Shown one piece after another: positions 1-63,603 of a stretch of DNA of 64,000 nt. The notes beneath the pieces are model-generated. The model had not been told where the DNA came from. It did no database searches and saw only the letters and a program-made list of their open reading frames with translations. Origin of the DNA: a virus; IMG/VR virus record IMGVR_UViG_3300032087_003094, positions 10,481-74,480 of that record; one strand, written 5' to 3'. Position numbers and translations under genes: made by a program. Position 1 is the stretch's first letter. Each line of letters starts with the position of its first letter.

Positions 1-1079
1 ACGACACTATAAGCTCTTTTGATAGCCCCGAGTCCCCTAATTGGCGCGTATCAAACCTTGTCGCCGGAACTAAAGTAAATCTAGGCACTGGCACAAACAC
101 GTCCGATGTAGGATATAACCCTTTCACTAAACGATTTGGATTCATTCGTAACAACTTTGGCACTGTCACTGAAATAAGTGAATCGGACATTGTTAATAGC
201 GTAGCCTCCCCCACCTTAATTAGAGCCGTTACTATTTTAGGTTTGGGTGGTTTGAATGATACCGAGGGTCTTACTGATGTTTATCAGAATTTAACGGAAG
301 GTGGGTACGAGTTTTGGTTTTGTATCGAGAATGGTGGAAGAAACTGGATCTATAACGCCCCCTTCACTGAAGATGACATGTTCAGCACTTCTAATGTTAA
401 CGTTACTCAAAGACAAGAGTTAATTGTTGCAAAAAATTCAGCTGGAACCAATGACGGCTTAGAGGGGGTAGGATTTCACCTGACCAATCAGCAATTATTA
501 GCATGCCAGGAAGGTGCTGTGGATGTTAGAAGGCTATTCTTAATGAACAGGCCTACCAATAGAGATACAGATTACAGTTATTCAAACACGGGGGCCCACA
601 CTGGAGCAGATAACGCCGCAACATTAACCGATTCAGCTCAAGATTGGGAGGTTAACCACTGGACCGGTGAGAACATCGACAATATTACCGACGGCTCATC
701 AAATAGCAGCGTCACATCGAACACAGCAACAACCATCACAGCTACTCTATCAGGCGGCACAGATAACGACTGGGACACAGGTGATGAGTACTTAGTGGGT
801 GATGGCAATTTAGTGGTAACAGAGCCTTTTGATGCTGACTCGGTAATCCCGTCTGGAGAGCTAGCAAGTTGTATATTTCACCCGCCTACAGGTCATATGC
901 TGCTGTTATCAAGTTCTGGAACATCTGTCTATCAATACACCTTCGACGGAACTCTAATCGACACCTTAGATATATCAGGGCAATCGTTTGGAAATGCGGA
1001 AGGTTTATGTATGCATGGTGACAACCTGGTAATTATGGGGGAGGTGGACGAATGCGTTTATTACACCTATACGCCATAG
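1..1079 (+). CDS. 5'-truncated YjiK/SdiA-regulated-like beta-propeller protein (putative virion/fibre protein) carrying an inserted ~68-aa domain
   Basis: Frame is open from nt 3, upstream of the listed 243 start. Repeated blade motifs DTEGL, DGLEGV, NAEGLC..LVIMGE. Similar to the middle of 39536..41611. Confidence 0.6.
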   Translation, partial: DTISSFDSPESPNWRVSNLVAGTKVNLGTGTNTSDVGYNPFTKRFGFIRNNFGTVTEISESDIVNSVASPTLIRAVTILGLGGLNDTEGLTDVYQNLTEGGYEFWFCIENGGRNWIYNAPFTEDDMFSTSNVNVTQRQELIVAKNSAGTNDGLEGVGFHLTNQQLLACQEGAVDVRRLFLMNRPTNRDTDYSYSNTGAHTGADNAATLTDSAQDWEVNHWTGENIDNITDGSSNSSVTSNTATTITATLSGGTDNDWDTGDEYLVGDGNLVVTEPFDADSVIPSGELASCIFHPPTGHMLLLSSSGTSVYQYTFDGTLIDTLDISGQSFGNAEGLCMHGDNLVIMGEVDECVYYTYTP

Positions 1080-3065
1080 ATGGCTGATTATTTAGGCTCA
1101 GCAGTAGCTGCAGACGGCGATAGTTATACGGTTAATACTGGTGCTGATTTTTTAGTCTGGATACCTTACGGCTACAGAAGCGGCACAACAACAGCTAGCG
1201 GGCAAGATTTTGGCGGCGCTGCGCTAACGGAGGTTCAAGACAACAGTATCAACTTGGCTGGTCTTGGTGATCCAACAATAAACCTATCTTACAAAGTTGC
1301 CCCCGTTCTTACTGCGCAAACTCTTAGTCTAACTTGGTCGGGCGCTTTAACTGATGAGAATGGTTATGGGATTTCTCTTGAAGATGTTGATCAAATAAAC
1401 CCAATACCAGCAGTCAATGGTGAAGACTCTGGAACCTACACAACAGACAACTCGCCATCGCTAACTTATGACGCGCCCGCAGGCGCAACAGTGCTTTACT
1501 ATAAGTTTCATTGCACAAACGGCGCCAGCACAATAGGAACCCCTACAGGATTTACTTTAGTAGCTAATGACATTCTACTGACTACTCCAGCATATAGACA
1601 GGTATCAATCTTTAGAAAAAAGGTAACAGCTGACGAGACCGGTGAAACTGTAATAGCGACAACCTCTGGAAGCTCGCCAATAGGGGGCTGTCATGGGCTT
1701 GTTGTAATTCAATCACCCGTAGTATTGCCAGGGGTTAATATAGCTACCGTTGGCGGTGATGACGTTGTAGAGATAGGTGAAAACAATGTAATTATCGCTG
1801 GCACAGGATTTGAGGCAGTTCAAGGTACTGGCGATATAACAATTAGCCCATCTGATAATGTAGCAGACCCTTTAGCGGTAACTATATCAACAGTTGATTC
1901 GTGGGCTGACACTAGCATTCAATTCGATATACCCTCAGCTATAAGCCTCCTGTATGGGGACGTTTACTTTTTTGTCACAAATGACAGCGCAGAGGTTAAC
2001 GCTAGCGGGCATTTAGCCTCATTAACCACGCCAGCCGGAAGGCAGTATTTAACCATAAGAGAGCAAAACGATTTAGGTGTTCTTTTAAATACCACCGGAA
2101 TAGAGTTAGATGCTGACCAGCTAGAATGGCAAACCCTATCCAATGGCGGCGGAACAGTTTATATAGGCCCATCAGGCACAGTTTACATTTACAATTATGC
2201 TGGCTCAGTGCCGGCAACTGAAGAAATTTATATAAGGCTTGGAGATGATACTGATAAAACGTGGTCAGCAGACGCGCTAGAAACAATCACTATAGGCTCA
2301 CTCTCTGCTACGCTATCAGGTGTTTCAGGTGTTTATGTCGCTGGAAATCTATCGGTAGAGACAAATATTGCATTAACTGGAAATTCTGGAGCGTACGCAG
2401 TAGGCAGCGTGACTGCATCCACAGCTATCGATATAGAGCTAACAGGAAATGCAGGAACTTACAGTGTTGGAAGTGTCGATAACCAAACACAAATCAACCT
2501 AACGGGCGTAGCTGGAGCATATTCAGTAGGCAACCTAGACAATCAAACCGATATATCAATCACTGGTAATGCAGGCTCTTATGCCGTCGGAAACGTTGTG
2601 CCTGTAGGTGATGTTACCATTCCATTAACCGGCAACTCTGGAACTTACTCGGTAGGTAATTTATCACCAGAAGGCGATCAAACATTAGCTGTAACAGGTA
2701 ACGTCGGAACTTATCAAGTAGGCAATGTAACCGTATCAACAGCAATTAACACACCAATAACTGGAGTAACTGCTTCCTATTCTGTTGGAAATCTAGAAAA
2801 TGCCACACAAGCTCAATTAACAGGCGTTTCAGGCTCTTATGATGTAGGAAGTCTAGGCGTTGCCGGACCAGTCACTACGTTTATAACCGGCGTAAGTGGA
2901 AGCTTCTCAGTAGGCTCTATGGGCGTAATAAACCAAATAGACCAAACAACCAGAAACAACGCAAGAACAAGTTTTGAAGCAAGGCAAAATAGAGAATCAA
3001 GTTCAGGCGCAAGAGCTAACAGAACAAGTAACTCATCAGTGCGACCAAACAGAACCAGCAGATAA
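1080..3065 (+). CDS. Putative virion fibre/decoration protein: N-terminal beta domain, Ig-like segment, ~22-25 aa repeats, Arg-rich tail
   Basis: SGQDFGG..LAGLGDPTI is shared with the N-terminus of 39536..41611. About 11 repeats of LTGNxGxYxVGx. C-terminus RNNARTS..RPNRTSR. Confidence 0.6.
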   Translation: MADYLGSAVAADGDSYTVNTGADFLVWIPYGYRSGTTTASGQDFGGAALTEVQDNSINLAGLGDPTINLSYKVAPVLTAQTLSLTWSGALTDENGYGISLEDVDQINPIPAVNGEDSGTYTTDNSPSLTYDAPAGATVLYYKFHCTNGASTIGTPTGFTLVANDILLTTPAYRQVSIFRKKVTADETGETVIATTSGSSPIGGCHGLVVIQSPVVLPGVNIATVGGDDVVEIGENNVIIAGTGFEAVQGTGDITISPSDNVADPLAVTISTVDSWADTSIQFDIPSAISLLYGDVYFFVTNDSAEVNASGHLASLTTPAGRQYLTIREQNDLGVLLNTTGIELDADQLEWQTLSNGGGTVYIGPSGTVYIYNYAGSVPATEEIYIRLGDDTDKTWSADALETITIGSLSATLSGVSGVYVAGNLSVETNIALTGNSGAYAVGSVTASTAIDIELTGNAGTYSVGSVDNQTQINLTGVAGAYSVGNLDNQTDISITGNAGSYAVGNVVPVGDVTIPLTGNSGTYSVGNLSPEGDQTLAVTGNVGTYQVGNVTVSTAINTPITGVTASYSVGNLENATQAQLTGVSGSYDVGSLGVAGPVTTFITGVSGSFSVGSMGVINQIDQTTRNNARTSFEARQNRESSSGARANRTSNSSVRPNRTSR

Positions 3066-3110
3066 TGCTATAATTAACCCGACAACAGCAAAGAAAGAGA
3101 GATAAAGATA

Positions 3111-3530
3111 GTGAACACTAACCTGACAGACAAGCAAAGACGCTTTGTAGAATTTTATTGTGGTGAATGTAAATTTAACGCAACTCAAGCAGCTATTAAA
3201 GCTGGGTACAGTAAAGCATCTGCAGATGTGATTGGATGTGAGAACTTAGTAAAACCTAGTATACAAAAAGCAATACAAGCTTTTATGGATAAAGTAACAG
3301 ATGAGGCTCTAGTAACGACAGAATGGGTAGTAGAAAGGCTTAAACTTGAATCAGAGAGGGATGATGAAGGGTCAAGTCATTCAGCTCGTATAAGCGCTCT
3401 TGGAAAGCTTAGCGACTATACCGGCGGATTTGATAAGAATAAGAATCATACTGTTCACTCTGGCTCTGTAGGATTTAAAGATATCACCCAAATGACAGAT
3501 GAAGAGCTCGAAAACGAACTCAATCAGTAG
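3111..3530 (+). CDS. terS: Terminase small subunit (module A)
   Basis: LTDKQRRFVEFY..NATQAAIKAGYS motif of the Terminase_2 family. Confidence 0.9.
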   Translation: MNTNLTDKQRRFVEFYCGECKFNATQAAIKAGYSKASADVIGCENLVKPSIQKAIQAFMDKVTDEALVTTEWVVERLKLESERDDEGSSHSARISALGKLSDYTGGFDKNKNHTVHSGSVGFKDITQMTDEELENELNQ

Positions 3531-3572
3531 CATACTGACCTGAGTCGACCTCGAACGCGACTAACGTGCAGT

Positions 3573-3600
3573 AGCCTCCCTTTATCACGGAGGCTTTTTT
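3573..3600 (+). terminator. Intrinsic terminator after terS
   Basis: AGCCTCC/GGAGGCT stem followed by a T run. Confidence 0.8.
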
Positions 3601-3642
3601 ATGCCCAAAACACTAAATATAACGAATAATTCCTTTAATCTA

Positions 3643-3670
3643 TTGATTATGATGAATAGTTCGGTATAAT
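3643..3670 (+). promoter_or_regulatory. Sigma70-like promoter for the small-gene block between terS and terL
   Basis: TTGATT-16-TATAAT, then AAGGAG RBS before ATG 3701. Confidence 0.55.
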
Positions 3671-3700
3671 AGTTAGCGTATTTGAAAAAAGGAGTATCTA

Positions 3701-3796
3701 ATGTTTGAGCTTATTTTAATAGCCACTTTATGGGTGATTATATTCTCGCTTTGGGGTATAGAATGCGCGATAAAAAAGTTAAGAGGCGGCCAGTAA
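3701..3796 (+). CDS. Small membrane peptide (31 aa, not in ORF track)
   Basis: MFELILIATLWVIIFSLWGIECAIKKLRGGQ; GGAG RBS; stop overlaps next ATG. Confidence 0.6.
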   Translation: MFELILIATLWVIIFSLWGIECAIKKLRGGQ

Positions 3797-4092
3797 TGAC
3801 AGGGGTGACATTTGACAGAGGCCTTTTAATATGGGTTGTTGGCGAGAGGCAGCATTATGTTAAAGGCATGATGAGAGCCATCGATAAAGCTAGGAATCCA
3901 AGTTTAATTTATGATAAACGCTTCTCTAAAACCGACGGGCTTCGAGTTATACGATCATTCGAGAGAGTTAACGAAATACCATTTGACCCCTACAACAAAA
4001 CGCACCTTCTTTACATCTCAAGGATGGCTGGGCACGAACACTTTTTCAGAAGGTTTAAAAAAGTTATGCAGGAAGCTGGATTGAGGGGGTAA
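3796..4092 (+). CDS. Hypothetical protein (likely start 3796)
   Basis: TAATG coupling with the upstream peptide. Confidence 0.6.
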   Translation: MTGVTFDRGLLIWVVGERQHYVKGMMRAIDKARNPSLIYDKRFSKTDGLRVIRSFERVNEIPFDPYNKTHLLYISRMAGHEHFFRRFKKVMQEAGLRG

Positions 4093-4095
4093 GCA

Positions 4096-4260
4096 ATGAG
4101 CGCATCACAAACAGCCAGACTTATGGGAGCATCATCTATCAAAGATATAGCCTCATACTATGGTAAACACCCAGATACGATTCAAAACTATTACAAGAAT
4201 AACCGTGAGCTATTTAATGCCATGGTTAAATACTATGTTGAGAATAAGGAGGTGGAATGA
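4096..4260 (+). CDS. Small HTH DNA-binding protein (54 aa, not in ORF track)
   Basis: SIKDIASYYGKHPDTIQNYY helix-turn-helix pattern; GAGG RBS; ATGA coupling to next gene. Confidence 0.6.
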   Translation: MSASQTARLMGASSIKDIASYYGKHPDTIQNYYKNNRELFNAMVKYYVENKEVE

Positions 4261-5590
4261 TGCCATACTCTGCGTTGATTTACGCTGCCGCTGAGGCGGA
4301 GCGATCTTACTGGTCAAAGCAAGTGCCTATAGATTATGATCGATACAAGGACGACTGTATTCTAACTGGCTCCCATGTGCCAACTTACACCCAGTACGTG
4401 CTAGGCTGCAAAATGGATAGAGATATAAGGATGGCCAAAGCTAGAGAGGAGAAGGCTAAGGATGAGGCTGTAGATTGGGAGGTGTTTTGCAATAGATTTT
4501 ACCGAGAAGAGGTAGAGCTGAGATCAAAAAGGTCGAAGTTTAATCTTGTAGCAAGCTATATATTGCTAGGTATTATCAAGACTGTTGAATTTATAAGGGA
4601 AAAGAGGCAATGAACAATAAAGATATAAAAACATTAGAAATAAGGGTTAGAAATTTAGAACGTATGGTTTATTGCATGACTGGGCTAATACTTCGTCGCG
4701 CAGATAAGGATGACTTTCTTGAGTCTTTGAATAGTTTTAATATATCCCTAGACCGCCTTGGTGTTGACAAGTCTGCTACGGATTTTATAAAGGAGGTCGA
4801 ATGATTTTTTGGAGTGAAGATGAATATAACAGGCTGGATGAGGCCAAAAGTAGGAATGATGCGCTGTTTTTAAATAGTCTTATATGTCCACAGGCTCACC
4901 GATCTCTATTCACCACTTCAGCCACGCAGCGCTTGAGCGGTTTACAGCAGAACAGCAACCAAGCAGAGATAGATAGGTTCTTTAAATTGCGAGAAAAATC
5001 AGCCAGCAAGTCGTTTGAAGTAGAGATTAAGGTGGCGCTTGACGATCTTCATGATAGCGTTTTCAGCGTCATTGAAGAATCCATTTGCGAGCTTAAAATT
5101 TCAGATAAAACAATAATGCCTTTAAGGGGTGAGGGAAATCAATGACTAAAAAAATTAACTGGAAATCAAGAGCGGCTGAAATATACCACATATCACTAGC
5201 TGAAGCTGAAGAGCTAAAGGAGTCTGGAAATACCAAAGACGCGCCACTAGCATTCATGAAGATAGGTGCAGCTATGGCACTACAAGACTTGTTGCTCGAG
5301 TATGGTGTAGATGTCGAGCAAGAAAAGAAATCTAAGATAGTGCTGCTGTCATGAGTGAGTTCAAGTTAAATGATAAGGTTTGGGTTATTCGAAACAATGA
5401 AGTGTCGGAGGTTGTTGTTTGCGGAGTTACTGATGAGCTAGTTGCTAAAGGTGGGATGGTTAGGGAATGCTCTTATTACTTTGTAGCAGATTCTGACCTT
5501 TTTGTAGATATTCAAGGGCGCATGAAGCTAGAGCAGCATTTAGTTTTTAGAACTAAAGAGGCTTTAATAAAAAGCTTGTTAGATGAATAA
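4257..5590 (+). CDS. Run of five translationally coupled hypothetical genes (4257-4613, 4610-4804, 4801-5145, 5142-5354, 5351-5590)
   Basis: ATGA overlaps and GGAGG-type RBSs; no recognisable family. Confidence 0.65.
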
Positions 5591-7076
5591 AAAAAATCCA
5601 GCTAAGAAAAAAAGGGCTGAGCTAGAAAGAAAAGTCCTAATCAAAAGAGAGTTAGAGAGGCGTAAGAAAGCTAATCTAGCTTTTGATCAATACAATCAGT
5701 TTTACGACTGGCAAAAAGACTTCTGCGCAGCCACCGCTGATTACTTCGAGTCGTGTCTATGTGCAGCAAATCAAATCGGTAAGACGTTCACCGGTACAAC
5801 TATTGACTCGTTCCATCTCACCGGCGACTATCCAGAAGGCTACCAAGGGCATAAGTTTGACTTCGCTCCTTTGTGCTGGGGTCTTGGTTATTCTATGGAA
5901 AAGTGTCGAGACCTACTACAAAAAGCTTTGTTCGGTGATTATGTTGGTAAAGAGTTTACTGGCGGTCTAGTCCCTAAAGATAAGATAGTAAGCTGGGAGT
6001 CTGCCACTGGGACGCCTAATGCAATGAGAACAGTTAGAGTTAGGCATAAAACTGGCGGCACATCAGTTATTCAATTCTGGTCATATACTCAAGGCCAGCA
6101 TGCCATTATGGGAGATGTTGTTGACTGGTTCCATGTGGATGAAGAGCCGAGAGACCAAACAATCAGACCTCAAGTTCTAACCAGGACTATTAATGGTGAC
6201 AAAGGCAAAGGTGGTAGAGGGATATATACCTTTACTCCTGAGAATGGTCGAACAGAGCTAGTCATTAAGTTTATGGACGACCCAAGCAAAGACCAGTTCT
6301 TTATGCAGAAAGGCTGGATTGATGCGCCTCATATCACAGAAGAGAAACGGGAAAGGATGCTCGAACAGTATCCGGCTCATCAGAGAGATATGAGAACCAA
6401 AGGTATTCCAATGCTAGGTCATGGTCGAATCTATGACTTGTCCGAAGAGTTTATTAAGTGTGACCCATTTGAAATCCCAAGTCACTGGTTTGTTATTGGG
6501 GGAATGGACTTTGGTTGGGACCATCCTCAATCTCAAGTTAAACTGGTTGAAGATAGGGATACTGGCACGTTTTACTTAACTCACTGCTGGAAAGCCTCTA
6601 AAGTTTCTGCCAATGACGCTTGGGGCGCCGTTAAATCATGGCAATCTAATATTCCTGTAGCTTGGCCTCATGACGGACTGCAAAACGAGAAGGGTCGAGA
6701 TGATGCCGTACAACAGAAGGTTCATTATCAAAATGCTGGATTTAGAATGACCTCGGAACATGCTACTCACCCCCCAATCAACAAAGCCGGAAAGATCCAC
6801 GCGGGAGGAAATAGTGTCGAGCATGGGCTTTACGAAATAAGAGATTTAATGTGCAAAGGCAAGTTTAAAGTGTTTAGTGGATGCCTAGAGTTTTTTAACG
6901 AGTTCAATCAATACCATAGAGATGACAAAGGTAAAATTGTAAAAGTAATGGATGACATCTTGGACGGAGTGCGCTACGCCTATATGATGCGTCGATATTC
7001 TGTTAGAATTGGTGATATAATGGCACCAATCAAGAAAGTTTACATACCCCAGCCTTTAAAAACTATGGGAAGATAG
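5583..7076 (+). CDS. terL: Terminase large subunit, P22 gp2-like (module A)
   Basis: Walker A AANQIGKT, Walker B DEEP, TFTPENG, nuclease GMDFGWDHP and DDILDGVRYA. Confidence 0.95.
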   Translation: MNKKNPAKKKRAELERKVLIKRELERRKKANLAFDQYNQFYDWQKDFCAATADYFESCLCAANQIGKTFTGTTIDSFHLTGDYPEGYQGHKFDFAPLCWGLGYSMEKCRDLLQKALFGDYVGKEFTGGLVPKDKIVSWESATGTPNAMRTVRVRHKTGGTSVIQFWSYTQGQHAIMGDVVDWFHVDEEPRDQTIRPQVLTRTINGDKGKGGRGIYTFTPENGRTELVIKFMDDPSKDQFFMQKGWIDAPHITEEKRERMLEQYPAHQRDMRTKGIPMLGHGRIYDLSEEFIKCDPFEIPSHWFVIGGMDFGWDHPQSQVKLVEDRDTGTFYLTHCWKASKVSANDAWGAVKSWQSNIPVAWPHDGLQNEKGRDDAVQQKVHYQNAGFRMTSEHATHPPINKAGKIHAGGNSVEHGLYEIRDLMCKGKFKVFSGCLEFFNEFNQYHRDDKGKIVKVMDDILDGVRYAYMMRRYSVRIGDIMAPIKKVYIPQPLKTMGR

Positions 7077-7077
7077 A

Positions 7078-9138
7078 ATGCTAACAGCTACAGACGTAAG
7101 AGACCTCCACGACAAAGCTTATACCCACGGACAAACAACAAGAGAAAAAGCGGCAGACGATTTACTGTTTTTTTGGTTAAGCCAGTGGGATGACACACAG
7201 CTAGGAGGCTCATCGCTTCAGTATCGTGGCCAATTCGATATGCTTCGAAAGGCTGCTCGTCAAATTATATCAGACATTAAAGCAAACCCAGTGCAGGTTG
7301 ACTTCGAGCCAATTGAAGACACTGACGAGTCAGGCGCAGACATTATTGACGGCATGTATCGTTCAGATATGCGTAACAATTCAGCATTAGAGGCAAGAGA
7401 AAACGCTATCACGGAATCAATTGTTTGCGGCGTTGGCGCATGGGAGCTCTACACTACCTATAAAACTAGACGAAACGGCGACAATCGACAGATAATCAAC
7501 CGCAGGCCGCTATTTGAAGCCAACAATCAAGTATTCTGGGATCCTAACGCAAAGCTTAATGACAAATCGGACGCTAATTACGTGTCGTGCTTGGTTGGGT
7601 ATTCAGAAGATGGATATAAGCAGCTTGTTAAAGAGTTAGGTGGCGATGAGGTAGATGATGTTCCTAAGTCGTTCGCATTTCCTGAGCACTCCTACGTTTT
7701 CCCATGGCTTACTGGAAACACCGATTATTACGTCACTCGATTCTATCATCGAACCAAGAAGAAAGTTAAGATATTCCTATTTGCTGATGCGATTGGTAGC
7801 GAGCAAGAGGTTAGAGAAGATGATCTCGACGATAAAGAAGACGAATTGATTGATAATGACTTTCAGTTAATCGACGAAATCGAAAAGGAAGTCTACGAGG
7901 TTAAGCTTTACATCGTGGGCGGCGGTGATGAGGTATTAGATTGCTCAGTTATACCTGGTGAGCATATACCAGTCATCCCCAATTACGGAGAAAGGGCTTT
8001 TGTTGAAGGTGAGGAGCATTACGAAGGTATAGTCAGGCTAGCAAAAGACCCTCAAAGGCTGAGAAACTTCCAGCTGTCCTATCTTGCAGATATTGTATCT
8101 AAGAGCCCGAGACAGAAACCTATATTCTTTCCTGAGCAGATACAAGGTTTCGAGTATATGTATGAAGAAGCTGGGGCTGATAACAACTTCCCTTACCAAC
8201 TTCAAAACATGAAGGACGCTAACGGAGACCCGTTACCAATTGGCGCTCAAAGTGTTATGCCTGAACAGCCAATGCCTCAAGCTCTTATCGCAAGTATACA
8301 AGCGTCAAGAGAAGCTATTAATGATGTAGCCAGTGAAGGTCTACCCCAAAATATTACTGATATGGATTTAAGTGGTGAGGCTTTAGTCCAAATAGAAAAA
8401 TTATTTGATAAGCAATCTTTTATTTATCAACACAACCTTAAAGCAGCTCTTAGGCGCGATGGTGAGGTTTATGCCTCAATGGCTTCTGTTGTATATGATA
8501 CAGAGCAAGAAGTCTCACTAGTTAAGCCTGACGGTGTAGCATCTAAAGAAGTTATCAATCAGCAGGAGATAGATCCAGAAACGCTACAACTTGTAGTCAA
8601 AAATGACGTCAAAAGTTACATATTTGACGTCTATGCCGACATTGGACCAAGCTTTCAATCCGTTAAAGAGCAGAGCCGCAAAGAGTTAAAGGAGATGATT
8701 AACAGTGAAGCCCCTGACAGTCCTATGCGTCAAATGATGCTGCTTGAATATATGACTATGATTGATGGTGTAGCGTTTAAATCAATGAGAGAGTACGCGA
8801 GGAATCAATTGGTGCTACAGGGTTATGCTGAACCTGAAACTGATGAAGAGAAGCAGATGCTTGCTCAACAGCAGCAATCACAACAAGAACAACCAGATCC
8901 AGCTCTATTGATAGCTCAAGCTGAAATGGGTAAGGCTCAGGCTGAGCAAATGAATGCTCAATCCAATATGATGGATACTCAAATAGATCAATATAATGCA
9001 GAAACTAGCAGGGCTAAAGTTATGGTTGATGCTAAAAAAGCGGATGCCGAGATAAACTTCAAGAACATCCAATCACAAGGCGCTCGAATAGACAACGTAA
9101 GAAAAGTCACCGGCGCAGACCTAAGGCAGAGAGCATAG
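7078..9138 (+). CDS. Portal protein, P22 gp1-like
   Basis: Follows TerL; 686 aa; GIVRLAKDPQRLRN; Gln-rich C-terminal barrel helix. Confidence 0.9.
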   Translation: MLTATDVRDLHDKAYTHGQTTREKAADDLLFFWLSQWDDTQLGGSSLQYRGQFDMLRKAARQIISDIKANPVQVDFEPIEDTDESGADIIDGMYRSDMRNNSALEARENAITESIVCGVGAWELYTTYKTRRNGDNRQIINRRPLFEANNQVFWDPNAKLNDKSDANYVSCLVGYSEDGYKQLVKELGGDEVDDVPKSFAFPEHSYVFPWLTGNTDYYVTRFYHRTKKKVKIFLFADAIGSEQEVREDDLDDKEDELIDNDFQLIDEIEKEVYEVKLYIVGGGDEVLDCSVIPGEHIPVIPNYGERAFVEGEEHYEGIVRLAKDPQRLRNFQLSYLADIVSKSPRQKPIFFPEQIQGFEYMYEEAGADNNFPYQLQNMKDANGDPLPIGAQSVMPEQPMPQALIASIQASREAINDVASEGLPQNITDMDLSGEALVQIEKLFDKQSFIYQHNLKAALRRDGEVYASMASVVYDTEQEVSLVKPDGVASKEVINQQEIDPETLQLVVKNDVKSYIFDVYADIGPSFQSVKEQSRKELKEMINSEAPDSPMRQMMLLEYMTMIDGVAFKSMREYARNQLVLQGYAEPETDEEKQMLAQQQQSQQEQPDPALLIAQAEMGKAQAEQMNAQSNMMDTQIDQYNAETSRAKVMVDAKKADAEINFKNIQSQGARIDNVRKVTGADLRQRA

Positions 9139-9149
9139 TTTCAATAAAT

Positions 9150-9258
9150 TTGCAGCTGGTACTTAATAGTTTTATACTATAGGTACTGGCGAGTGAGTAC
9201 GCAAACCCGAATATAGGCGGTCTTACCTATAGTTATCGTTCACTACGAGGATAATCAA
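9150..9258 (+). promoter_or_regulatory. Promoter and structured leader of the scaffold gene
   Basis: TTGCAG-17-TATACT; ACTATAGGTA/TACCTATAGT inverted repeat (9176-9185/9224-9233); small hairpin over the GAGG RBS. Confidence 0.55.
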
Positions 9259-10308
9259 GTGGAAACATTATCGTTAAGCGAGCTTAAAGCTCAAAACGAG
9301 GCTGCTGAACAGCCTAAAGATACACCGGAAGATGAGTATGTTGAGGTGGATAACGAAACTTTAGAGCCGATTGAGGTTGAGGAACCCGAAGAGCTAGAAG
9401 TTGAAGAAGAAGCTGAGACTGATGACGAAAAGTCAGAACCAGAAGGTGAATTGGAAGACTGGCAGAAGACCGAAGACGATAATAAAAGCGGTTTCATTCC
9501 AAGCGCTGAAGCTAAACATCTACGTCTAAAAAACAAAGATTTAAAGGCTCAGAAAGAGGAAAGAGACGCCGAGCTAGAAGAGCTTAGACAGAAAGTTGAA
9601 GCCTTATCTAATCAACCCAAGAAAGCTGAGGATGTTTTACCTCCAAGGCCGGTATTAGAGGATTATGATTATGATGAGAAGCTTCATGGTGATGCGCTTG
9701 AGGCGTGGTTTGATAAAAAGATCGAGTTAAAACTTAACAAAGGTCTCGAGTCAACCCAGCAAGATAGGGCTAAACAGCTTGAAATTGAAGCGGCAAACAA
9801 AGCTCGGGAAAATGCAGTTCATGAGCATTTAAACAAAGCAAGCAAATTAATTGCTGAGAAGAAGATAACCCAAGACGCTTGGCTAGCTGGAGATTTATTA
9901 ATCCGGCAGACTTTGGATCAAGTGTTTCCAGGTTCAGGCAATGAAGTTGCAGATCAATTTGTCTCACTCATGGAAAGCAATGGCGAAGGTAGCGAGAAAG
10001 CTTGGTTTTACTTAGGCAGAAATCCTAAAGCCCTTAATGAGTTCAAAGACAAACTAATGAACGACAAGACAGGCGCTAGCGGAGTTATGTATTTAGCTAA
10101 GATTCAAGAGAAAGCCTCAAAACCTCCACGTAAAAAACGTAGTGACGCACCAAAACCAGCAGCGGAACTCAAGGGTGACGCAGCAACCGGAACAGCCAAG
10201 TCATTAAAGAAGCAATATGACAAAGCGGTAAAGGATGGCGACACTCAAGGCAGAATTGACGCCAAGAGAGCAGCCAAAAAAGCTGGTGCAGATGTGTCCA
10301 AATGGTAA
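9259..10308 (+). CDS. Scaffolding protein, P22 gp8-like
   Basis: Between portal and coat; acidic N-terminus, coiled coil, basic C-terminal helix-turn-helix. Confidence 0.85.
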   Translation: METLSLSELKAQNEAAEQPKDTPEDEYVEVDNETLEPIEVEEPEELEVEEEAETDDEKSEPEGELEDWQKTEDDNKSGFIPSAEAKHLRLKNKDLKAQKEERDAELEELRQKVEALSNQPKKAEDVLPPRPVLEDYDYDEKLHGDALEAWFDKKIELKLNKGLESTQQDRAKQLEIEAANKARENAVHEHLNKASKLIAEKKITQDAWLAGDLLIRQTLDQVFPGSGNEVADQFVSLMESNGEGSEKAWFYLGRNPKALNEFKDKLMNDKTGASGVMYLAKIQEKASKPPRKKRSDAPKPAAELKGDAATGTAKSLKKQYDKAVKDGDTQGRIDAKRAAKKAGADVSKW

Positions 10309-10321
10309 AAGGTAACTAAAA

Positions 10322-11587
10322 ATGTCTAGTACAGGTAAGATTGTAGAAGTAATGTTTGAGTCCGCGTTAGAGACTTACGAAACCCAAGACATGATGCTCC
10401 CCTTAACGAATTTCTTTGAGCCGGAAGCGGGCGACATGCAGAACTCGGGCAACTTTATTTGGCGCCCAGTCCAGCAACATGCACCAATTATCGACGGCTG
10501 GGATTTAACAGGGTTAGAAACTGATATTATCGAGGAGACCTATCCTGCGATTCTAGGAAGCCCTAAAAATGATTTTGTAGAGCAGCGTGCTGATGATTTG
10601 CGTGATATGACGTTCTGGAAGCGCAGAGGCGAGCAGTCTGGTAGGCGTCAAGCGTCTAACCTTAATCAAACTATCGCGACAGCAGTGGCCACACAAGGCT
10701 CCTTATTCTATCGTGATGTAGCATCGACCAGTGGTTATGATTTCATTGCTCAAGGTCAAGCTATCATGAATGAGAGGCAAGGCGCTCAAAGTGAAAGATG
10801 TTACGTTCTTAATGATCGCTCAACACTTCGTTTTGGTCAGGATTTAGCAGCCAGACAAACTCTTCAGGGTCGCCCTGCGGAAACTTGGAACACTGGTCAA
10901 ATCGGCCAAAATGTAGCCGAGTTTGATGTCTACACTGGCTCATATTTGCCAAACCTAGTAGGCGGTGCAAATCCAGCAACTACCGTAACAGGAGCACAAT
11001 CATTCGCTCCAGAAGGTGGAACGGTTGACGCAGCTACCGGCGTTTGTACTAATGTTGACTATCGTTCAGCAGAGATTCCGGTCGCAGATTCAAGCGGTTA
11101 CAATATTGGAGACAAGGTTACTATTGGCTCTCTTAATGCTGTTGGTCTTGATGACAAAACCGACACTGGTGAGTTGATGACATTCACTATTGTGGCAAAA
11201 CCTTCAGGAACCAGTATCACTGTATATCCTAAACCCATTGCGGCTGATGATGCGGCATTATCAACTTTAGAAAAGGCTTATGCTAATGTTAATACAACAA
11301 TTGCAAACCTTGATACAGTAGATCGTTTAAATACAGACGCTTCAGCAAAAACCAATTTATTTTGGGATAAAGACGCTGTTGAGGTTCTTGGTGGCAGCAT
11401 TCCAGCCAACTTGTTTAAAGAGTTTGACGGCATGAAGGTTGTTTCTAGCACTATGAGCAACGGTCAGACTATGTACATGGTCTACGATGGCGACATTGCT
11501 AAAATGACATTCAGATACCGCTTATTCACTTGGTTTGGCGTGACAATTGCCAACCCTAGCCAGTGTGGTGTTTCAGTATCAGGCTAA
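10322..11587 (+). CDS. Major capsid protein, P22 coat (gp5) family
   Basis: 421 aa; WRPVQQH; I-domain-like insertion (GDKVTIG..LMTFTIV..ITVYPKPI). Confidence 0.9.
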   Translation: MSSTGKIVEVMFESALETYETQDMMLPLTNFFEPEAGDMQNSGNFIWRPVQQHAPIIDGWDLTGLETDIIEETYPAILGSPKNDFVEQRADDLRDMTFWKRRGEQSGRRQASNLNQTIATAVATQGSLFYRDVASTSGYDFIAQGQAIMNERQGAQSERCYVLNDRSTLRFGQDLAARQTLQGRPAETWNTGQIGQNVAEFDVYTGSYLPNLVGGANPATTVTGAQSFAPEGGTVDAATGVCTNVDYRSAEIPVADSSGYNIGDKVTIGSLNAVGLDDKTDTGELMTFTIVAKPSGTSITVYPKPIAADDAALSTLEKAYANVNTTIANLDTVDRLNTDASAKTNLFWDKDAVEVLGGSIPANLFKEFDGMKVVSSTMSNGQTMYMVYDGDIAKMTFRYRLFTWFGVTIANPSQCGVSVSG

Positions 11588-25275: not shown

Positions 25276-25389
25276 ATGAATAACGAGCAAGATAACGCAA
25301 CAGAGGGTCAAGTAAGCCTATTATGGCTAGGATTAATTGCGCTAGGATTTTGGTTAAGCGCATTATTTATAGGGTGGTTAGTGTCATGA
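25276..25389 (+). CDS. Small membrane peptide (37 aa)
   Basis: MNNEQDNATEGQVSLLWLGLIALGFW..; homologue at 60414-60539. Confidence 0.65.
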   Translation: MNNEQDNATEGQVSLLWLGLIALGFWLSALFIGWLVS

Positions 25390-25835
25390 GAACCATTCAA
25401 AGCAGAATACAGCACTGTAAAAACAGAGTTCCGATCGCCGCGCCAAAAGTTGAAGAAAGCGCAAAGCTTCAAGCTGATGTGGACGCGTGGCTAGCGAAGG
25501 GTAACGAGATTTACGACGCTGATAAAAAAGAGGCTAATTTCAGGAATGATATTGAAAAATCTCGAGCCTACAAAAGGCGCACCAAGCCAGTATTAAACCT
25601 ATCCATGTGGCGCTTTAGAGGTGAAGATACCATCCTAACCACTAAAGATATGGTCAGAGTTTTAGAGTGCTCCAGCGATTGGGTTGTGACTGAATACACT
25701 AAGAAACATCTTATTCCAGCGCCCTATAAAATCAGAGATTTAGATGGAAAAGTAAAAATAACCAAGAAAAATCACAACGCCAACTATTGGAAGTTAGGCG
25801 ATTTAATTAAACACAATAAGGAGCTAGAAAAATGA
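25386..25835 (+). CDS. Hypothetical protein with C-terminal AlpA/Xis-like winged HTH (likely start 25386)
   Basis: ILTTKDMVRVLECS..IPAP..NYWKLGDL; near-identical copy at 60536. Confidence 0.6.
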   Translation: MRTIQSRIQHCKNRVPIAAPKVEESAKLQADVDAWLAKGNEIYDADKKEANFRNDIEKSRAYKRRTKPVLNLSMWRFRGEDTILTTKDMVRVLECSSDWVVTEYTKKHLIPAPYKIRDLDGKVKITKKNHNANYWKLGDLIKHNKELEK

Positions 25836-26665: not shown

Positions 26666-27668
26666 ATGAAAATAGAAACGAGAGCAACTTTATATGATTG
26701 GGTAGAGTTTAAGGTTGAATGTGGTAGCACAGTAATTAACGAGGATATTCATCCAGAGCAGGCGGCCGACCTAATTGAGCAGCTTGAAAGCGCTATAGAC
26801 GATCTAAAAGGGCTAGCTAGAGAGGTTGATGTTGAAGAGATATTCGCAGGGACCAGAAAGAAAGTCGAATCTTTAAATATTAGAGGATAACAAACAATGA
26901 GCATAGAAAACCATAAGTGGAGTGATGAAGATTTAAGTCTTTTTGACACCTCTGAATCTGAATATGCAGGGTTATTATTTAGCCTAAGATGCAATTCTAT
27001 CATGAGTTCGTTTAGCGATTTTTACATCAACAAACAAGACGCCATAGCTATAGCCAAACACTTTAACGTAGACAATGAGTCTCTAGTGGAGGGTATAAAG
27101 GAGTTGATTAACTCTGTTGACTGCTCGTCTTGCTGCCCAAACACAGAGGTATTCTCAATTGACGACCTACAAAAACTAATAACTAAGGAGGATATAGAAG
27201 AATGAGTAATGTAATAGAGTTTCCGCAAACTGATGTTGAGTATATATTCAACAGTACTGGCGAAATTGTAGAGTCAATTATCATCGATTTATCAAGACTA
27301 AAAAGCATCGAACTAAGAAGGGATGAGTCAGACGAAGTCAGAGGCCGCATAACTAGACTGTGTATTGCTTGGCTAGCTTTAGAGAATCCAGAGGTATTAA
27401 ATTTTGATGATGAATTAAATGAGGAGGATGGAGAGTGAATGATATAGAGTTTATTATCTTGTGGTTTTTGTCTGGATTTTTGCCATTTTTATTATCAGGG
27501 ATTGTGATGGAATCAAGAAGCCCTAAAATTGATTTTGAGTTGGTGTCGCTTTCGATTTTGTCTGGCGGCTTTGGATTTTTATCGTTTTTTTTATTTTTTC
27601 CAGTATTTATATTTATTTGCTTCCAAAGGGTATTCTTTTTTATTAATGATAGGAGGGCTAGACAATAA
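26666..27668 (+). CDS. Four small hypothetical genes (26666-26890, 26897-27205, 27202-27438, 27435-27668 membrane protein)
   Basis: Good RBSs; 26897 and 27435 have homologues at 61958 and 62441. Confidence 0.7.
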
Positions 27669-27686
27669 CCAAGAATGAGGTATAAT
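27659..27686 (+). promoter_or_regulatory. Sigma70-like promoter of the non-coding cluster
   Basis: TAGACA-16-TATAAT, identical in the second copy (62664-62691). Confidence 0.7.
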
Positions 27687-27692
27687 TAAAAG

Positions 27693-27829
27693 GCTGATTG
27701 AAACCGGCGTCAAGAATCACAAAACGAGAAAGAGACTTTAAGTAAGAATCCAGAAGCCTAGTTGTTAAATCGTTTTGTGTAACTAGAGATGCTTGTTTCA
27801 ACTGGGTTCTTTCTTAAGGTCTTTTTTTT
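27693..27829 (+). ncRNA. P4-CI/P1-C4-like antisense/attenuator RNA, copy 1
   Basis: Long interrupted stem ending in U8; loop TCGTTTTGTG pairs with CACAAAACGA 27718; bulge GTTTCAA pairs with TTGAAAC 27698; compensatory changes in copy 2. Confidence 0.7.
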
Positions 27830-27851
27830 CGCCTCAAGTTTCCTCAGTAAA

Positions 27852-28350
27852 TAGATGATATATGTGGTGGAGTTAGTTGTAACCGTGGCGCGCGGATATA
27901 GTTACATGCTGGCAATGGCCTTATTCAGTTGACTAGACCGGCCTAGCTCCCCTTCATATATCATCTACAATTAGCATATCAACGACCACTTGTCACAGAT
28001 TGGGTTTAAGTCCCTTTTGGAGATAACTGGCGGGAATATTAATTCCGACGATGCCGTTTCAATAGGTGACGTTGATATGCTAATTGACAAGTCCTTAAGA
28101 ATTTAGATTCTTGTTCAGCAAAAAATGAAAATGAATGCCTATAGCTAAAGGCTTTAAACAGCAAATTTACAAAGTTTTACATTTTCTACTTATCACTACG
28201 ACATTTAGACCGTGGACAAAGCAGGTTAAGTTGATGTGCCAACTATCTTAAGCTGGATATCGGAGCGACAACTCTAAAAACTGTTCTGCATATTGAGAGT
28301 GATAAGAATATAGATTTACCTTTATATCAACTAAAGGTCTAATGACCACT
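27852..28350 (+). ncRNA. Tandem stem-closed structured RNA-like domains, copy 1
   Basis: Closing stems 27852-64/27955-67 (13 bp), 27968-84/28070-86 (17 bp), 28189-97/28298-306 (9 bp); no ORF. Confidence 0.55.
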
Positions 28351-28370
28351 ATTAACTAAAGGAAAACAAT

Positions 28371-29324: not shown

Positions 29325-29354
29325 AATAATAATACACAACCAGTCAAACTAGTT

Positions 29355-29453
29355 TATAATACATATACGCGGCTAGGTTTAGCGACCGAAAAACAAACCC
29401 CTTATTTGTTTGCCGCTCATATTTCATAAGGGCTGATGCTAAAGGAGCGTTAA
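29355..29453 (+). ncRNA. C4-like two-loop antisense RNA with downstream targets at the RBS
   Basis: TATAAT; GCGGC/GCCGC closing stem; TTTAGC and CCCTTAT in the two loops are complementary to GCTAAA 29438 and ATAAGGG 29426, next to AAGGAG. Confidence 0.7.
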
Positions 29454-29967
29454 ATGATAGATCTAAAAACCTGCACAAGAGCCGATTTTATAGAGGCTTA
29501 CACAAATCTAGAAAACTCTCACAAGCACCTAGAAAGCGAAGTTCATCATCTTAACGAGCGCCTGCAGGAATACGAAGGCATTCAAACTGATGATGAAAAG
29601 GAGGCGGAGTTTCAAAAAATTCTGGACGATGTACGAAAAGAAAGGAAATCTCAAAACTACCCGAACTAGGTGGAATAAGCTAAGCAATAAGAAAAAGAAG
29701 CTAATATTCGACCACCTGCCAAAGTATGTGAAATCAACCTACAAAGATGCTCGATACCCATCAAGAAAAAATGCAGAGGTCTACATTAGTAAAGAAGCAT
29801 GGCTTGATGAAATTATTGAGAATAAAGACTATCAGAAGTTTTCACCACAGCCAGCGGTAGGAAGCGCATCATTTAAACCAAGCCCGATAAAAAATAGAAG
29901 CAAGGAGCTAGATAGGCTTAGAGAGCAGAGTAAATCGGTTAACATTAAAGAGAGGTTAGGGTTATGA
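29454..29967 (+). pseudogene. Replication-initiator-like protein split by a frameshift in an A6 run
   Basis: Removing one A at 29614-29619 gives EAEFQKFWTMYEKKG..WNKLS, a motif typical of phage replisome-organiser C-terminal domains. Confidence 0.6.
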
Positions 29968-31308: not shown

Positions 31309-31884
31309 ATGAAAACAACATTAGGTAAGATTTGGGAGTTCGGTCCTTGCTGTAGAGAGGATGAGTCTGGCGGGTGGGGTTTGCTAACTAAAAACTTAGG
31401 AACTAGCGATCACTCAAAAGAAGTTGATTTGATGGAAATATTAAAATCAAACGGAATTAAAGATGCAGTTTGGGCTTTAAGATGTTTTGATTATCTTGAT
31501 TATTGCCTTTTTCTTGCTGATGTTGCAGAAAGCGTACTTGATATTTATGAGAAGAAAAACAGTTCAAGCGCTCCGAGATTAGCAATTCAGGCAGTTAGAG
31601 ATTATAAGGCTGGAGGTATAACAAAAGAAAAATTACGATCTGCTGCTGATGCTTATGCTGCTTATGCTGCTGCTGATGCTTATGCTGCTGCTTATGCTGC
31701 TGATGCTGCTTCTGCTTATGCTGCTGCTTATGCTGCTTATGCTGCTGATGCTGCTTATGCTGCTGCTGATGCTGCTGCTGATGCTTCTGCTGCTGCTGAT
31801 GCTTCTGCTGCTTATGCTGATGCTAGATCAAAAAAATGGGATGAAATAGAACAATTATTCATTAAGCATTTTGGAGATAAATAA
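31309..31884 (+). CDS. Phage protein with Ala/Tyr/Asp low-complexity tract
   Basis: ILKSNGIKDAVWAL and PRLAIQAVRDY motifs plus (AADAY)n. Confidence 0.8.
   Translation: MKTTLGKIWEFGPCCREDESGGWGLLTKNLGTSDHSKEVDLMEILKSNGIKDAVWALRCFDYLDYCLFLADVAESVLDIYEKKNSSSAPRLAIQAVRDYKAGGITKEKLRSAADAYAAYAAADAYAAAYAADAASAYAAAYAAYAADAAYAAADAAADASAAADASAAYADARSKKWDEIEQLFIKHFGDK
31640..31824 (+). repeat. GCT/GAT/TAT/TCT codon-level tandem repeat
   Basis: About 185 nt of nNT triplets, mostly GCT. Confidence 0.9.
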
Positions 31885-60417: not shown

Positions 60418-62683
60418 ATAACGAACAAGATAACGCAACAGAAGGTCAAGTAAGCCTACTGTGTTTAGCTGGCATAGGTTTACTGTTTTGGCTGATTGGG
60501 CTTGGTTTAATATGGTTTATAGGGTGGTTAGTGTCATGAGAACTATTCAGAGCAGAATACAGCACTGCAAAAACAGAGTTCCTATCGCGGCGCCAAAGAC
60601 CGAGGAAAGCGCAAAACTTCAAGCTGATGTGGATGCATGGCTAGCGAAGGGTAACGAGATTTACGACGCTGATAAAAAAGAGGCTAATTTTAGGAACGAC
60701 ATTGAAAAATCCAGAGCCTACAAAAAACGCACCAAGCCAGTGCTAAACCTATCTATGTGGCGCTTTAGAGACGAGGATACCATCCTAACCACTAAAGATA
60801 TGGTAAGGGTTTTAGAGTGCTCCAGCGATTGGGTTGTGACCGAATACACTAAAAAGCATCTTATTCCAGCGCCCTACAAAATCAGAGATTTAGATGGGAA
60901 GGTAAAAATAACCAAGCAAAACCACAACGCCAACTATTGGAAGTTAGGCGATTTAATCAAACACAATAAGGAGTTATCGAAATGAATAATGGAGATATGC
61001 CAATAAATGCCACATCGCCAAACAAGCATCAACCAGAATGGGCAGCGGCTAGAGTTGGAGGCCTAACCAAGAGAGAGTATTTCGCAGGGCTGGCCATGCA
61101 GGGCATGCTATCAAGTTCGGATTACGCCACATCCACATGGAATACTGTGGCTATAGAGGCTGTAGAGGTCGCAGACGCACTACTAAAGGAGCTAGAAAAA
61201 TGAGGCAGTCAACTGAACTAAGCAACTTAGTCGCTAAACACCTGCAAGGTCAAGTGCCACCTACAGTAGTTAATGAATTTAACAAGCTAATTGTAAAAAT
61301 GCGTAAAGATGAGTCGACCATTGCGGACGCTGTGGAAAAATTAGAAGTTATCCACAACCCTCAAGTTGGAGTAAATAACTTAAACGACGAAATACTCAAG
61401 GGGAAGCTCTTTGAAATTTAGACTTGAATCGCTCGTAAAGAGCTACAACAAGCCTAAGAAGCACGATATTGAGAAAGATGTAGAAGTTATCGATTTAGAA
61501 GAGAAAACGCCGTCAGAGGCCGATTTCGAGCTTGCTGATGCTATGATAGAGTATTATAGGGAGGAATTATGAAAGATTTGTTACCAGCGTTGATCCTTGT
61601 TTGGCTTGGGGGTTTTTTCTTCGGGGGCGCTGTTTTTGGTGATTTTGAAAAACCCAAGCAGCCTACATGCCAAAGCGAATTCAACCAGAAAGTTAAATCA
61701 ACCAGTATCGAGCATGGTCAAGATATCCCACACAAGGGAAAGCGGCCTAATCGAATAGTAATTGAATGTGAGGGTAGGTAGATGCTATTTAATAACGCTG
61801 CAAAGGGTAGGTTAATGAGCGGATTTGACGCTGAATTTATTGAAGCATCATCTCGCGATCTTGCTAAAAGAGAGATTGAAGACTTCGAGCTTGATTTATT
61901 CAACGCTAAAATTAGATCTATACAGCTTGCAAATTTAAAGAAAAAGGATAACAAACAATGAGCATAGTAGAGTATGATTTTAGCGATGATGAGTTAAATT
62001 TCATTAATTGTGATTCAGATGTAATCCAATTAGAGGCTCTTGGGTATAGCGATTGTTATGATAATGAATGCTTCATTGACATCAGAAAACAAGACGCCAT
62101 AGCTATAGCCAAGCACTTTAACGAGGATAGGGAGTCTCTAGTGGAGGGTATAAAGGAGATGATTTACAAACTTGAAAATAAGACGCGTGGAGGGGTAAGT
62201 TTGCAGGCGTTAATGACTCAGCACTCACAAACAGATGAATTTATTGGCGACCTACAAAAACTAATAACTAAGGAGGAATAGAAGAATGAAAGCCAATATG
62301 ATAGTTAGGATTTTAGGCGCTATAGCGTTGATGTATTTTGTTTATCAAGAGACTGGCTGGGCTACAACTATTTGCTTGTCGTTTATCACTCTTCAGGTTG
62401 AGCTTTCAGAGTATATCAACAAGTTAAGGAGGAATAGAGAGTGAATGATATAGAGTTTATTATCTTGTGGTTTTTGTCTGGATTTTTGCCATTTTTCTTA
62501 TCAGGGATTGTGATGGAATCAAGAAGCCCTAAAATTGATTTTGGGTTGATCTTGCTTTCGATTTTGTCTGGCGGCTTTGGATTTTTATCGTTTTTTTTAT
62601 TCTTCCCAGTATTTATATTTATTTGCTTCCAAAGAGCATTCTTTTTTATTAATGACAGGAGGCTAGACAATAACCAAGAATGA
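60414..62683 (+). CDS. Second mosaic copy of the early small-gene run (60414-60539, 60536-60985, 60982-61203, 61200-61421, 61569-61781, 61958-62281, 62441-62683 and others)
   Basis: Gene-by-gene similarity to 25276-27668 with swaps and insertions. Confidence 0.75.
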
Positions 62684-62698
62684 GGTATAATTAAAAAC

Positions 62699-62844
62699 GC
62701 TGAAATGAGACGCAGCAAAGATTTAAAAACACACAAACAGATAATAGAAAGACTTTAAGAGAACTCAGAAAGCCTAGTTGTAATTCGTTTGTGTGTAACT
62801 AGATCAAGCTTGTCTCAACTGGGTTCCCTTAAGGTCTTTTTTTT
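62699..62844 (+). ncRNA. P4-CI/P1-C4-like antisense/attenuator RNA, copy 2
   Basis: GTTTGTGTGT (62787) pairs with ACACACAAAC (62729); GTCTCA (62812) pairs with TGAGAC (62706); U8. Confidence 0.7.
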
Positions 62845-62866: not shown

Positions 62867-63370
62867 TAGATGATAAGAATACAACAGCCAGTCCTGGGCA
62901 GCGAACGTGACTTAAAAAGGCCCACTTATATCATCTACAGTTAGCATATCAACGACCACTTGTCACAGATTGGGTTTAAGTCCCTTTTGGAGATAACTGG
63001 CGGGAATATTAATTCCGACGATGCCGTTTCAATAGGCGGCGTTGATATGCTAATTGACAAGTCCTTAAGAATTTAGATTCTTGTTCAGCAGAAATGAAAA
63101 TGAATGCCTATAGCTAAAGGCTTTAAACAGCAAATAACAAACTAATTTTTTCTGTCTCTAAGTTACGACTTTTGAGGGTGAGGATAAAGCAGGTTAATGT
63201 TGACATATTTGCCAATAACACGAGATTTAACAAATCAATAATCGGGCAAGGTCGGGGCGACACCCTAAAAATGTTCTGCATATCGTGAGCTTAGAGAATA
63301 ACAGAGAGAGGGTAAACTAAGTAGATCTTATTATAGGTCAACTCAAACCCTCATTAGACAACCTATAACT
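62867..63370 (+). ncRNA. Tandem stem-closed structured RNA-like domains, copy 2
   Basis: Stems 62867-75/62929-37, 62938-54/63040-56, 63155-68/63283-97. Confidence 0.55.
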
Positions 63371-63577: not shown

Positions 63578-63603
63578 ACCCCTATTAACTAAAGGAAAAC
63601 AAT

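Follow-up and report, generated by a model that had tools for sequence, protein, structure and literature searches.

A family of folded marine phage RNAs with a near-invariant core and two co-varying pairings to a downstream hairpin

The element described here represents a family of folded phage RNAs that is uncatalogued in Rfam 15; the 8495 unnamed candidate RNAs from IMG/VR (PMC10690425) lie outside this comparison. It occurs twice in the window, a stretch of 64,000 nucleotides of viral DNA corresponding to bases 10481-74480 of a 74.5 kb IMG/VR record. The predicted structure, two long-range pairings to a downstream hairpin and a competitor for each of these pairings are established through covariation, that is, by comparison of sequences. 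The element is tentatively interpreted as a cis-acting leader switch for an early operon, with the invariant core binding a conserved factor (probability about 0.45).

Copies 1 (28189-28306) and 2 (63155-63297) contain all the strings quoted in an earlier, sequence-only reading of this DNA. The core of copy 1 consists, in order, of ACGAC, GGACAAAGCAGGTTAA, the hairpin CCAAC..GCTGG, TCGGAGCGACAACTCTAAAAAC and TGTTCTGCATA. Copy 2 has the same core within the outer stem TCTCTAAG(TT)ACGA (63155-63168) / TCGT(GAG)CTTAGAGA (63283-63297). As that reading held, the outer stems differ while the core is kept: the sequences flanking the two copies share 90-98% identity at a ~35 kb offset, and the block enclosed by these flanks has diverged except for the core. 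The A-U to G-C compensation it reported is found in P4 (GGAG..CTCT in copy 1, GGGG..CCCT in copy 2), and its GCAG/CTGC pairing is part of helix P2, whose strands GCAGG and TCTGC are complementary in 18/18 sequences. The functional unit reaches further 3′ than the proposed extent of 28183-28310, to ~28344 in copy 1 and ~63353 in copy 2. Missing from its account of the variable parts was a downstream hairpin, P5, that pairs with the variable unpaired segments. The features of both copies are listed in Table 1.

Table 1. Positions of the features of copies 1 and 2 in the window
Copy	Feature	Sequence	Position	Strand	Remark
1	P0 5′ strand	TCTA	28185-28188	+	P0 variants TCTA/TAGA, TCTG/CAGA and CTAA/TTAG read from flanks
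1	P1 5′ strand	CTTATCACT	28189-28197	+	pairs with AGTGATAAG; 9/9 P1 pairs doubly changed (18 sequences); 98.8% of cells pair
1	J1/2	ACGAC, segment a CATTTAGACC (28202-28211), GTGGACAAA	28198-28220	+	
1	P2 5′ strand	GCAGG	28221-28225	+	pairs with TCTGC 28285-28289
1	J2/3	TTAA and segment b GTTGATGTG (28230-28238)	28226-28238	+	
1	P3 base 5′ strand		28233-28237	+	same nucleotides as part of segment b
1	P3 top hairpin	CCAAC-TATCTTAA-GCTGG	28239-28261, including P3 base 3′ strand	+	5/5 top pairs doubly changed
1	P3 base 3′ strand	ATATC	28257-28261	+	
1	P4 hairpin	GGAG-CGACAA-CTCT	28262-28275	+	98.6% of cells pair; loop CGACA invariant
1	J4/2, P2 3′ strand, J2/1, P1 3′ strand	AAAAACTGT, TCTGC (28285-28289), ATATTGAG, AGTGATAAG (28298-28306)	28276-28306	+	
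1	3′ extension	AATA bulge, then P0 3′ strand TAGA (28311-28314)	28307-28344	+	
1	P5	ACCTTTA / loop TATCAAC / TAAAGGT	28318-28324 / 28325-28331 / 28332-28338	+	
1	b′′; a′	a′ GGTCTAATG	b′′ 28323-28331; a′ 28336-28344	+	complementary to b and a
1	Candidate leader mini-ORF	ATG ACC ACT ATT AAC TAA (MTTIN*)	28342-28359	+	read from sequence
2	Core domain		63151-63297	+	94.5 bits against model R1
2	P0/P1 5′ strands; a; b; long P3	a TGAGGGT; b GTTGAC	P0/P1 63151-63162; a 63173-63179; b 63199-63204	+	
2	P2; P4	GCAGG / TCTGC; GGGG / CCCT	63189-63193 / 63275-63279; 63254-63257 / 63263-63266	+	
2	P1 3′ strand	CTTAGAGA	63290-63297	+	partner TCTCTAAG 63155-63162
2	3′ extension	ATAA bulge, CAGA, P5 GAGGGT (63308-63313) ... 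ACCCTC	63298-63353	+	
2	b′′; a′	GTCAAC; ACCCTCA	b′′ 63337-63342; a′ 63347-63353	+	

Family members were collected with pattern scans built on conserved strings and run over viral and metagenome contigs. This gave 18 distinct sequences on contigs of ~35-50 kb from seawater, sediment and mat-type metagenomes. A covariance model, proposed in the sequence-only reading as a check, was built and used; it separates true copies (48.7-143.7 bits) from false ones, and the loose-pattern matches L010, L012, L044-L046, L048-L052, L057 and L059 were discarded by it. Its minus-strand matches in the ORF at 25323-25835 and in the homologues of this ORF are weak (16-24 bits) and were judged to be chance. An exact-core pattern has no true match in 185,579 prokaryote genomes (one per species); 11 pattern hits there are all high-GC false positives, the fold being absent from each. 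Record bases 1-10480, which precede the window, contain no copy even with filters off.

At the gathering threshold the only Rfam 15 family matching the window is the int-alpA RNA (RF02996), at 29366-29432 (+) with 46 bits against a gathering score of 35.8. This match lies directly after a promoter-like site (29333-29360) and ahead of the ORF at 29454. At E≤10, matches of Rfam 15 to copy 1, copy 2, L011 and L058 are at chance level, the best having 19.4 bits (E 1.4) and 18.9 bits (E 0.33). The earlier view that the element cannot be assigned to a known class thus agrees with the searches; of the outcomes named there as counting against it, a match in Rfam was not seen, and the lack of homologues named together with a lack of structure on probing is contradicted by 18 distinct homologues. 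Searching GenBank phages with blastn gave a single unrelated coding match of 74 nt, and ARAGORN, run on the window and on L003-L007, called neither a tRNA nor a tmRNA. A retron was considered as well: the element does have a closing inverted repeat, and no reverse transcriptase family was found in the 30 neighbouring and large ORFs scanned.

The covariance-model alignment of the 18 sequences, which was fitted to the structure and hence favours it, has 96.6% of cells paired in five helices (P1, P2, P3 base, P3 top and P4) and double, compensatory changes in 18 of 28 helix pairs. Pairing falls to only 36-47% in slid controls, where the 3′ partners are moved by 1-3 columns, and 0 of 500 shuffles match the observed values. 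A first pass with MAFFT and RNAalifold had already given the same helices. P1 takes the form of at least six unrelated sequences, every one complementary, and P3 is exchanged wholesale, its length ranging from ~25 to ~90 nt. In P3 of copy 1, C at 28253 forms a C-A mismatch; this position is T in L003 and in a contig from run X3. P4 is compensated in copy 2 and again in L053 (GAGAC/GTCTT). P2 is invariant in all 18 sequences, an invariance that, like that of the core, stems partly from ascertainment because the scan patterns required those strings. Since P2 is constant and P4 rarely varied, both helices rest on complementarity only. The junction nucleotides are near-invariant across phages of 36-53% GC, and the alignment as a whole bears out the proposal of a structured RNA whose co-varying stems enclose conserved unpaired nucleotides. 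Every helix (P1, P2, P3 and P4) includes G-U pairs, which would become C-A on the opposite strand; the folded molecule is therefore the + strand RNA, the transcribed one. Folding of single sequences was uninformative (z-scores of -1.3 to -1.9).

Several motifs and classes were tried and set aside. A pseudoknot of J1/2 with the P3 loop is not conserved, and a CGAC/GTTG pairing clashes with P3 and is broken in L011. A T-box-like UGGN varies between members, CsrA-type GGA sites are likewise variable, and the core of copy 2 does not fit an attC site. A phi29-type pRNA was dropped in view of the terminase and SU10-type portal that the phage encodes.

Inspection of the sequence around each copy revealed the hairpin P5 after every one of them, beginning 10-25 nt past P1. 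Its loop, b′′, is complementary to segment b, which comprises J2/3 and the first bases of P3 (GTTGAT in copy 1). The sequence after the loop, a′ (GGTCTAATG in copy 1), is complementary to segment a in J1/2 (CATT-T-AGACC in copy 1). Both pairings are present in 18/18 copies, with the cognate target always adjacent, and co-vary across about seven specificity types. The six core pairs of b:b′′ (PK2) form in 96 of 96 cells of a MAFFT alignment (A5) that was not fitted to this pairing, and three of these pairs are doubly changed; variants include GTTGGT/ACCAAC, GTTGAC/GTCAAC, GGTGGC/GCCACC and GCTGGC/GCCAGT. Segment a is TGAGGGT in copy 2 and GAGCC in L055, and the a′ targets are changed to match. 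Type 2 has both sides of a:a′ replaced, as TGAGGGT/ACCCTCA, ATGAGGGC/GCCCTCAT and CTTTGAGGGC/GCCCTCAAAG. An a:a′ mismatch without compensation is present in L022 and L047.

Types 4 and 5 were obtained after the pairing hypothesis had been written down, and both fit it; the pairs found later are ATGGTGGT/ACCACCAT with AGACC/GGTCT and TAAGTGGTG/CACCACTTA with GAGCC/GGCTC. When duplex energies are summed, the cognate assignment ranks lowest among all 5040 permutations of the seven b classes and best among the 24 of the four a classes, duplexes between types being weaker than cognate ones. Elsewhere in the window the target strings are absent except for one match in a coding region, and GTCAAC-N-CCCTC is matched by copy 2 only. 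The helices are interleaved in the order P1, a, P2, b ... P2′, P1′, b′′, a′, and b′′ and a′ are joined by an A-rich linker (TAAA, ACAA or AAAA).

Both long-range pairings compete with local helices. The P3 base shares its 5′ nucleotides with segment b and co-varies too, and the 3′ strand of P3 is copied in the downstream loop for 5-11 nt (ATGTGTCACAC, 11 nt, in L055; ATATC in copy 1; AGGTC in copy 2; GGGCC in L011). Similarly, a′ can pair with a or with the 5′ strand of P5, and both of these partners co-vary. The P5 5′ strand resembles a (TTACC vs AGACC; GAGGGT vs GAGGGT). Because both shared strands, b and a′, have co-varying competitors, two mutually exclusive folds are indicated; three-way covariation at both sites is what selection for such a pair of folds would be predicted to leave. 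The minimum-energy fold of the full-length RNA from L016 and L025 is the one with a:a′ and b:b′′, and the two folds are therefore of comparable stability. L053 has a weak P3 base and a weak P5. The same covariation fits alternating folds and a single fold that exchanges helix ends only equally well.

Every one of the 18 copies directly precedes the first ORF of a gene block. The window holds two related units of ~35 kb whose genes, all on the + strand, encode an SU10-type portal, terminase, tail-spike-like proteins, Erf, NinG and a methylase. The first gene downstream of the element varies by locus and may be DUF6378, DUF7167 or one of several unrelated ORFs. The element of type 1 phages is the last member of a non-coding array. 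At L011 and L053 it stands alone, directly after a promoter-like region that diverges from a NinG-like gene, and is followed by genes for an HNH protein, a YqaJ-type exonuclease, a recombinase and a helicase. Contigs in runs X1 and X2 join 28166 or 28124 straight to 28345, which places the end of the exchanged block at the final base of a′.

The mini-ORF that starts within a′ of copy 1 has an SD-like AAAGG inside the 3′ strand of P5, and its stop codon abuts the SD of gene 28371; it may be translated. The a′ of types 1, 3, 4 and 5 holds an SD-like AAAGG and the start (ATG, GTG or TTG) of an ORF of 5-22 codons, the stop of which abuts or overlaps the SD or start of the next gene in several loci. 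No start codon is present in a′ of type 2 or L011. The CCTTTA in the 5′ strand of P5 is complementary to the SD of gene 28371 in copy 1 only, and a general anti-SD role for this strand was rejected. With these exceptions in type 2 and L011 and the anti-SD confined to copy 1, the link to translation is not universal.

If the element is a cis-acting leader switch, its RNA would be a + strand transcript that opens an early gene block with methylase, recombination and replication genes. A sensor domain of 125-175 nt would be made up of P0/P1, the invariant 5-bp P2, the variable long P3 and the small P4 with its invariant CGACA loop, and the second part, P5, would carry the partners b′′ and a′ for the sensor segments b and a. 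In fold X the sensor would be closed, with P3 full and P5 formed. Fold Y would be a double pseudoknot of a:a′ and b:b′′, formed at the expense of the P3 base and P5. It would, in most types, bury the SD-like AAAGG and the start codon of the short leader ORF; in copy 1 it would also release CCTTTA, leaving it free to pair with the SD of gene 28371. A conserved factor on the invariant core, possibly a small molecule, a protein or a host machine, would set the balance of the folds and so gate the early genes. We infer the alternation of two folds in vivo, translation as the output and a factor on the core.

The element shares with riboswitches that use pseudoknot or strand-exchange platforms a conserved domain of several co-varying stems with invariant nucleotides at the junctions, located directly 5′ of an ORF. 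It also shares mutually exclusive pairings around one strand (both partners of b and of a′ co-vary), a later-transcribed competitor copying an aptamer strand. It differs in lacking a constant association with genes of one family or pathway and a defined ligand, in switching through P3 and J1/2 and not through P1, and in being restricted to one group of marine phages. Since the downstream genes differ by locus, no ligand is proposed and a classical metabolite riboswitch is not favoured. It is doubtful that the three-way-junction core forms an aptamer of a new kind, or the core of a new kind of self-cleaving ribozyme, with the start of phage recombination and replication tied to a host metabolite or signal via a double-pseudoknot switch whose switching strands can freely diversify.

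The same pairings might instead serve an antisense RNA like c4 of P1 and P7 or the CI RNA of P4. The stem-closed domain would then be excised as a stable RNA, and a and b would bind b′′ and a′ on transcripts of the phage's own type, both in cis and in trans; the leader ORF, and with it the operon, would thereby be blocked, and the types would serve for immunity or exclusion among related phages that occur together. c4 and CI are likewise small structured RNAs co-transcribed with their target in an early or immunity operon, with two variable, unpaired recognition segments complementary to a two-part site just 3′ in the same transcript, and their specificities also co-vary among related phages. 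The specificities here are lineage-specific, as shown by the weaker cross-type duplexes and the top rank of the cognate assignment among 5040 permutations, and the two units of the record carry different types. In types 1, 3, 4 and 5 the a′ target covers an SD-like sequence and start codon of a putative short first ORF, much as the b2 site in immI of P1 covers the ribosome-binding site and start of icd. Processing is suggested by the array around the type 1 element, whose other members are small RNAs closed by stems and tRNA-like genes. However, the C4 family of Rfam (RF01695) has no match at E≤10 in copy 1, copy 2, L011 or L058, and the element, roughly double in size, has a large three-way junction core with invariant nucleotides, for which antisense action has no need. 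Unusually for an antisense loop, an internal copy of the target keeps half of segment b in the P3 base, and the targets of type 2 and L011 have no start codon. Downstream lie recombination, replication and methylase genes and not an antirepressor-like gene, and the window has no second copy of the target elsewhere. An antisense role is accordingly considered unlikely. Slightly less likely still is a static double-pseudoknot RNA with an activity of its own (a new self-cleaving ribozyme, a signal for processing that separates the mRNA from the array of small RNAs and tRNAs upstream, or a structural RNA that acts in trans, for example as a decoy), with P5 and the P3 base as mere folding intermediates. 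The interleaved helices would suit such a fold, in which the A-rich linker between b′′ and a′ could lie along the invariant P2, and so would junction nucleotides near-invariant despite the spread in GC and the position at the 3′ end of tRNA-like arrays in relatives. A static fold does not, however, require the competitor strands (P3 3′ and P5 5′) to co-vary as they do; moreover, the element matches none of the Rfam ribozyme families and a cleavage site cannot be named.

A put-like RNA for processive antitermination, whose core binds the transcribing RNA polymerase and permits read-through of a long single-strand operon, is very unlikely. Like put of HK022, the element is a folded, cis-acting, RNA-only feature at the start of phage early operons, and an invariant core would suit a very conserved partner such as RNA polymerase. 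The phage genes are all on one strand, and at L011 and L053 the element comes just after an early promoter and before recombination genes, which is also the position of putL in HK022. Yet put consists of two simple stem-loops of ~70 nt, as against five helices here, and has no counterpart of the pairing with P5. Terminator-like sites are not enriched downstream of the element (10 observed vs 14.3 expected), so a need for antitermination is not apparent, and the one clear terminator (27813-27830) lies upstream of it. Hardly credible, finally, is an element acting as DNA (a recombination site, an origin or an ssDNA hairpin) or a functionless piece of mosaic intergenic DNA. The block is indeed swapped as a cassette between related phages, but the compensatory changes with many G-T pairs fit the transcribed strand only, the core is retained while stems are replaced, and neither direct repeats nor a recombinase gene lie alongside. 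A last comparison is with the stable RNAs of phage tRNA clusters (for example species 1 and 2 of T4): the type 1 element similarly ends an array of stem-closed RNAs and tRNA-like genes behind one promoter, but it stands alone behind a promoter in L011 and L053 and is always accompanied by its cognate target hairpin.

To our knowledge, only a few systems of RNA-only control of phage early operons have been described (c4/CI antisense RNAs, put and a few riboswitches). The present family joins features of two of them: its core is invariant and aptamer-like, and its two recognition segments diversify freely together with their targets. Should it prove to be a switch, it would offer RNA engineering a compact natural form of toehold-type strand exchange in about seven orthogonal types; should it act in trans, marine phages would have a new RNA-based system of immunity or exclusion. 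Given such strong covariation, the structure is ready for direct probing and reporter assays.

The array of the type 1 phages has further features. Ahead of it lies a strong promoter-like site, TAGACA-16-TATAAT at 27659-27686 (+), with 11/12 matches and no differences among five related viral contigs. After it comes a leader of ~130 nt that varies between phages and ends in a hairpin and T-run (27813-27830); a corresponding promoter and leader region is present in the second unit at 62666-62838. The inserts at 27852-27950 are variable and closed by long stems such as GATGATATATGTGGTGGAG/CTCCCCTTCATATATCATC (compare L005 880-1010 (-), L008, L009, L021 and L047). The arrays of relatives contain tRNA-like genes enclosed by long stems, with a T-arm and a CCA end; the L005 gene, which ARAGORN does not call, shows an oversized anticodon loop and variable region. 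'Domain B' (27968-28086 (+) and 62938-63056; also in L005, L006 and L018) is ~120 nt long with a 17-bp closing stem, TTAGCATATCAACG.../...CGTTGATATGCTAA. It is 98% identical between the units, has a folding z-score of -3.4 and matches no Rfam family.

The loop and 3′ strand of P5 in copy 1 (28325-28338) form a two-mismatch copy of a ribosome-site cassette, TATTAACTAAAGGA, which heads the DUF6378 gene in both units (28350-28363 and 63583-63596). An extra DUF7167 gene at the cassette junction in L003 and copy 2 suggests recombination at TATTAAC. Action of segment b on many such cassettes was considered and rejected, just two exact cassettes being present.

The 74.5 kb record comprises more than two related ~35 kb units in tandem with cassettes exchanged, and copies 1 and 2 are probably carried by two separate but related phage genomes that are chained together in it. 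Run X3 has a 35.9 kb contig with the element at depth 151, so that a culture of such a phage may exist, and the likely source run has short branching contigs; this suggests a real genome size of ~36 kb and a record that is an assembly chain of co-occurring related strains. The 73 kb contig Ga0208161_1000021 also has two copies of the element, identical to each other (L020 and L032). Further downstream in the window, the ORF at 31309-31884 contains a tandem 9-nt repeat (GCTGCTKMT-like, 31610-31843 (+), ~16 or more overlapping copies) that encodes a low-complexity stretch rich in Ala, Asp and Tyr.
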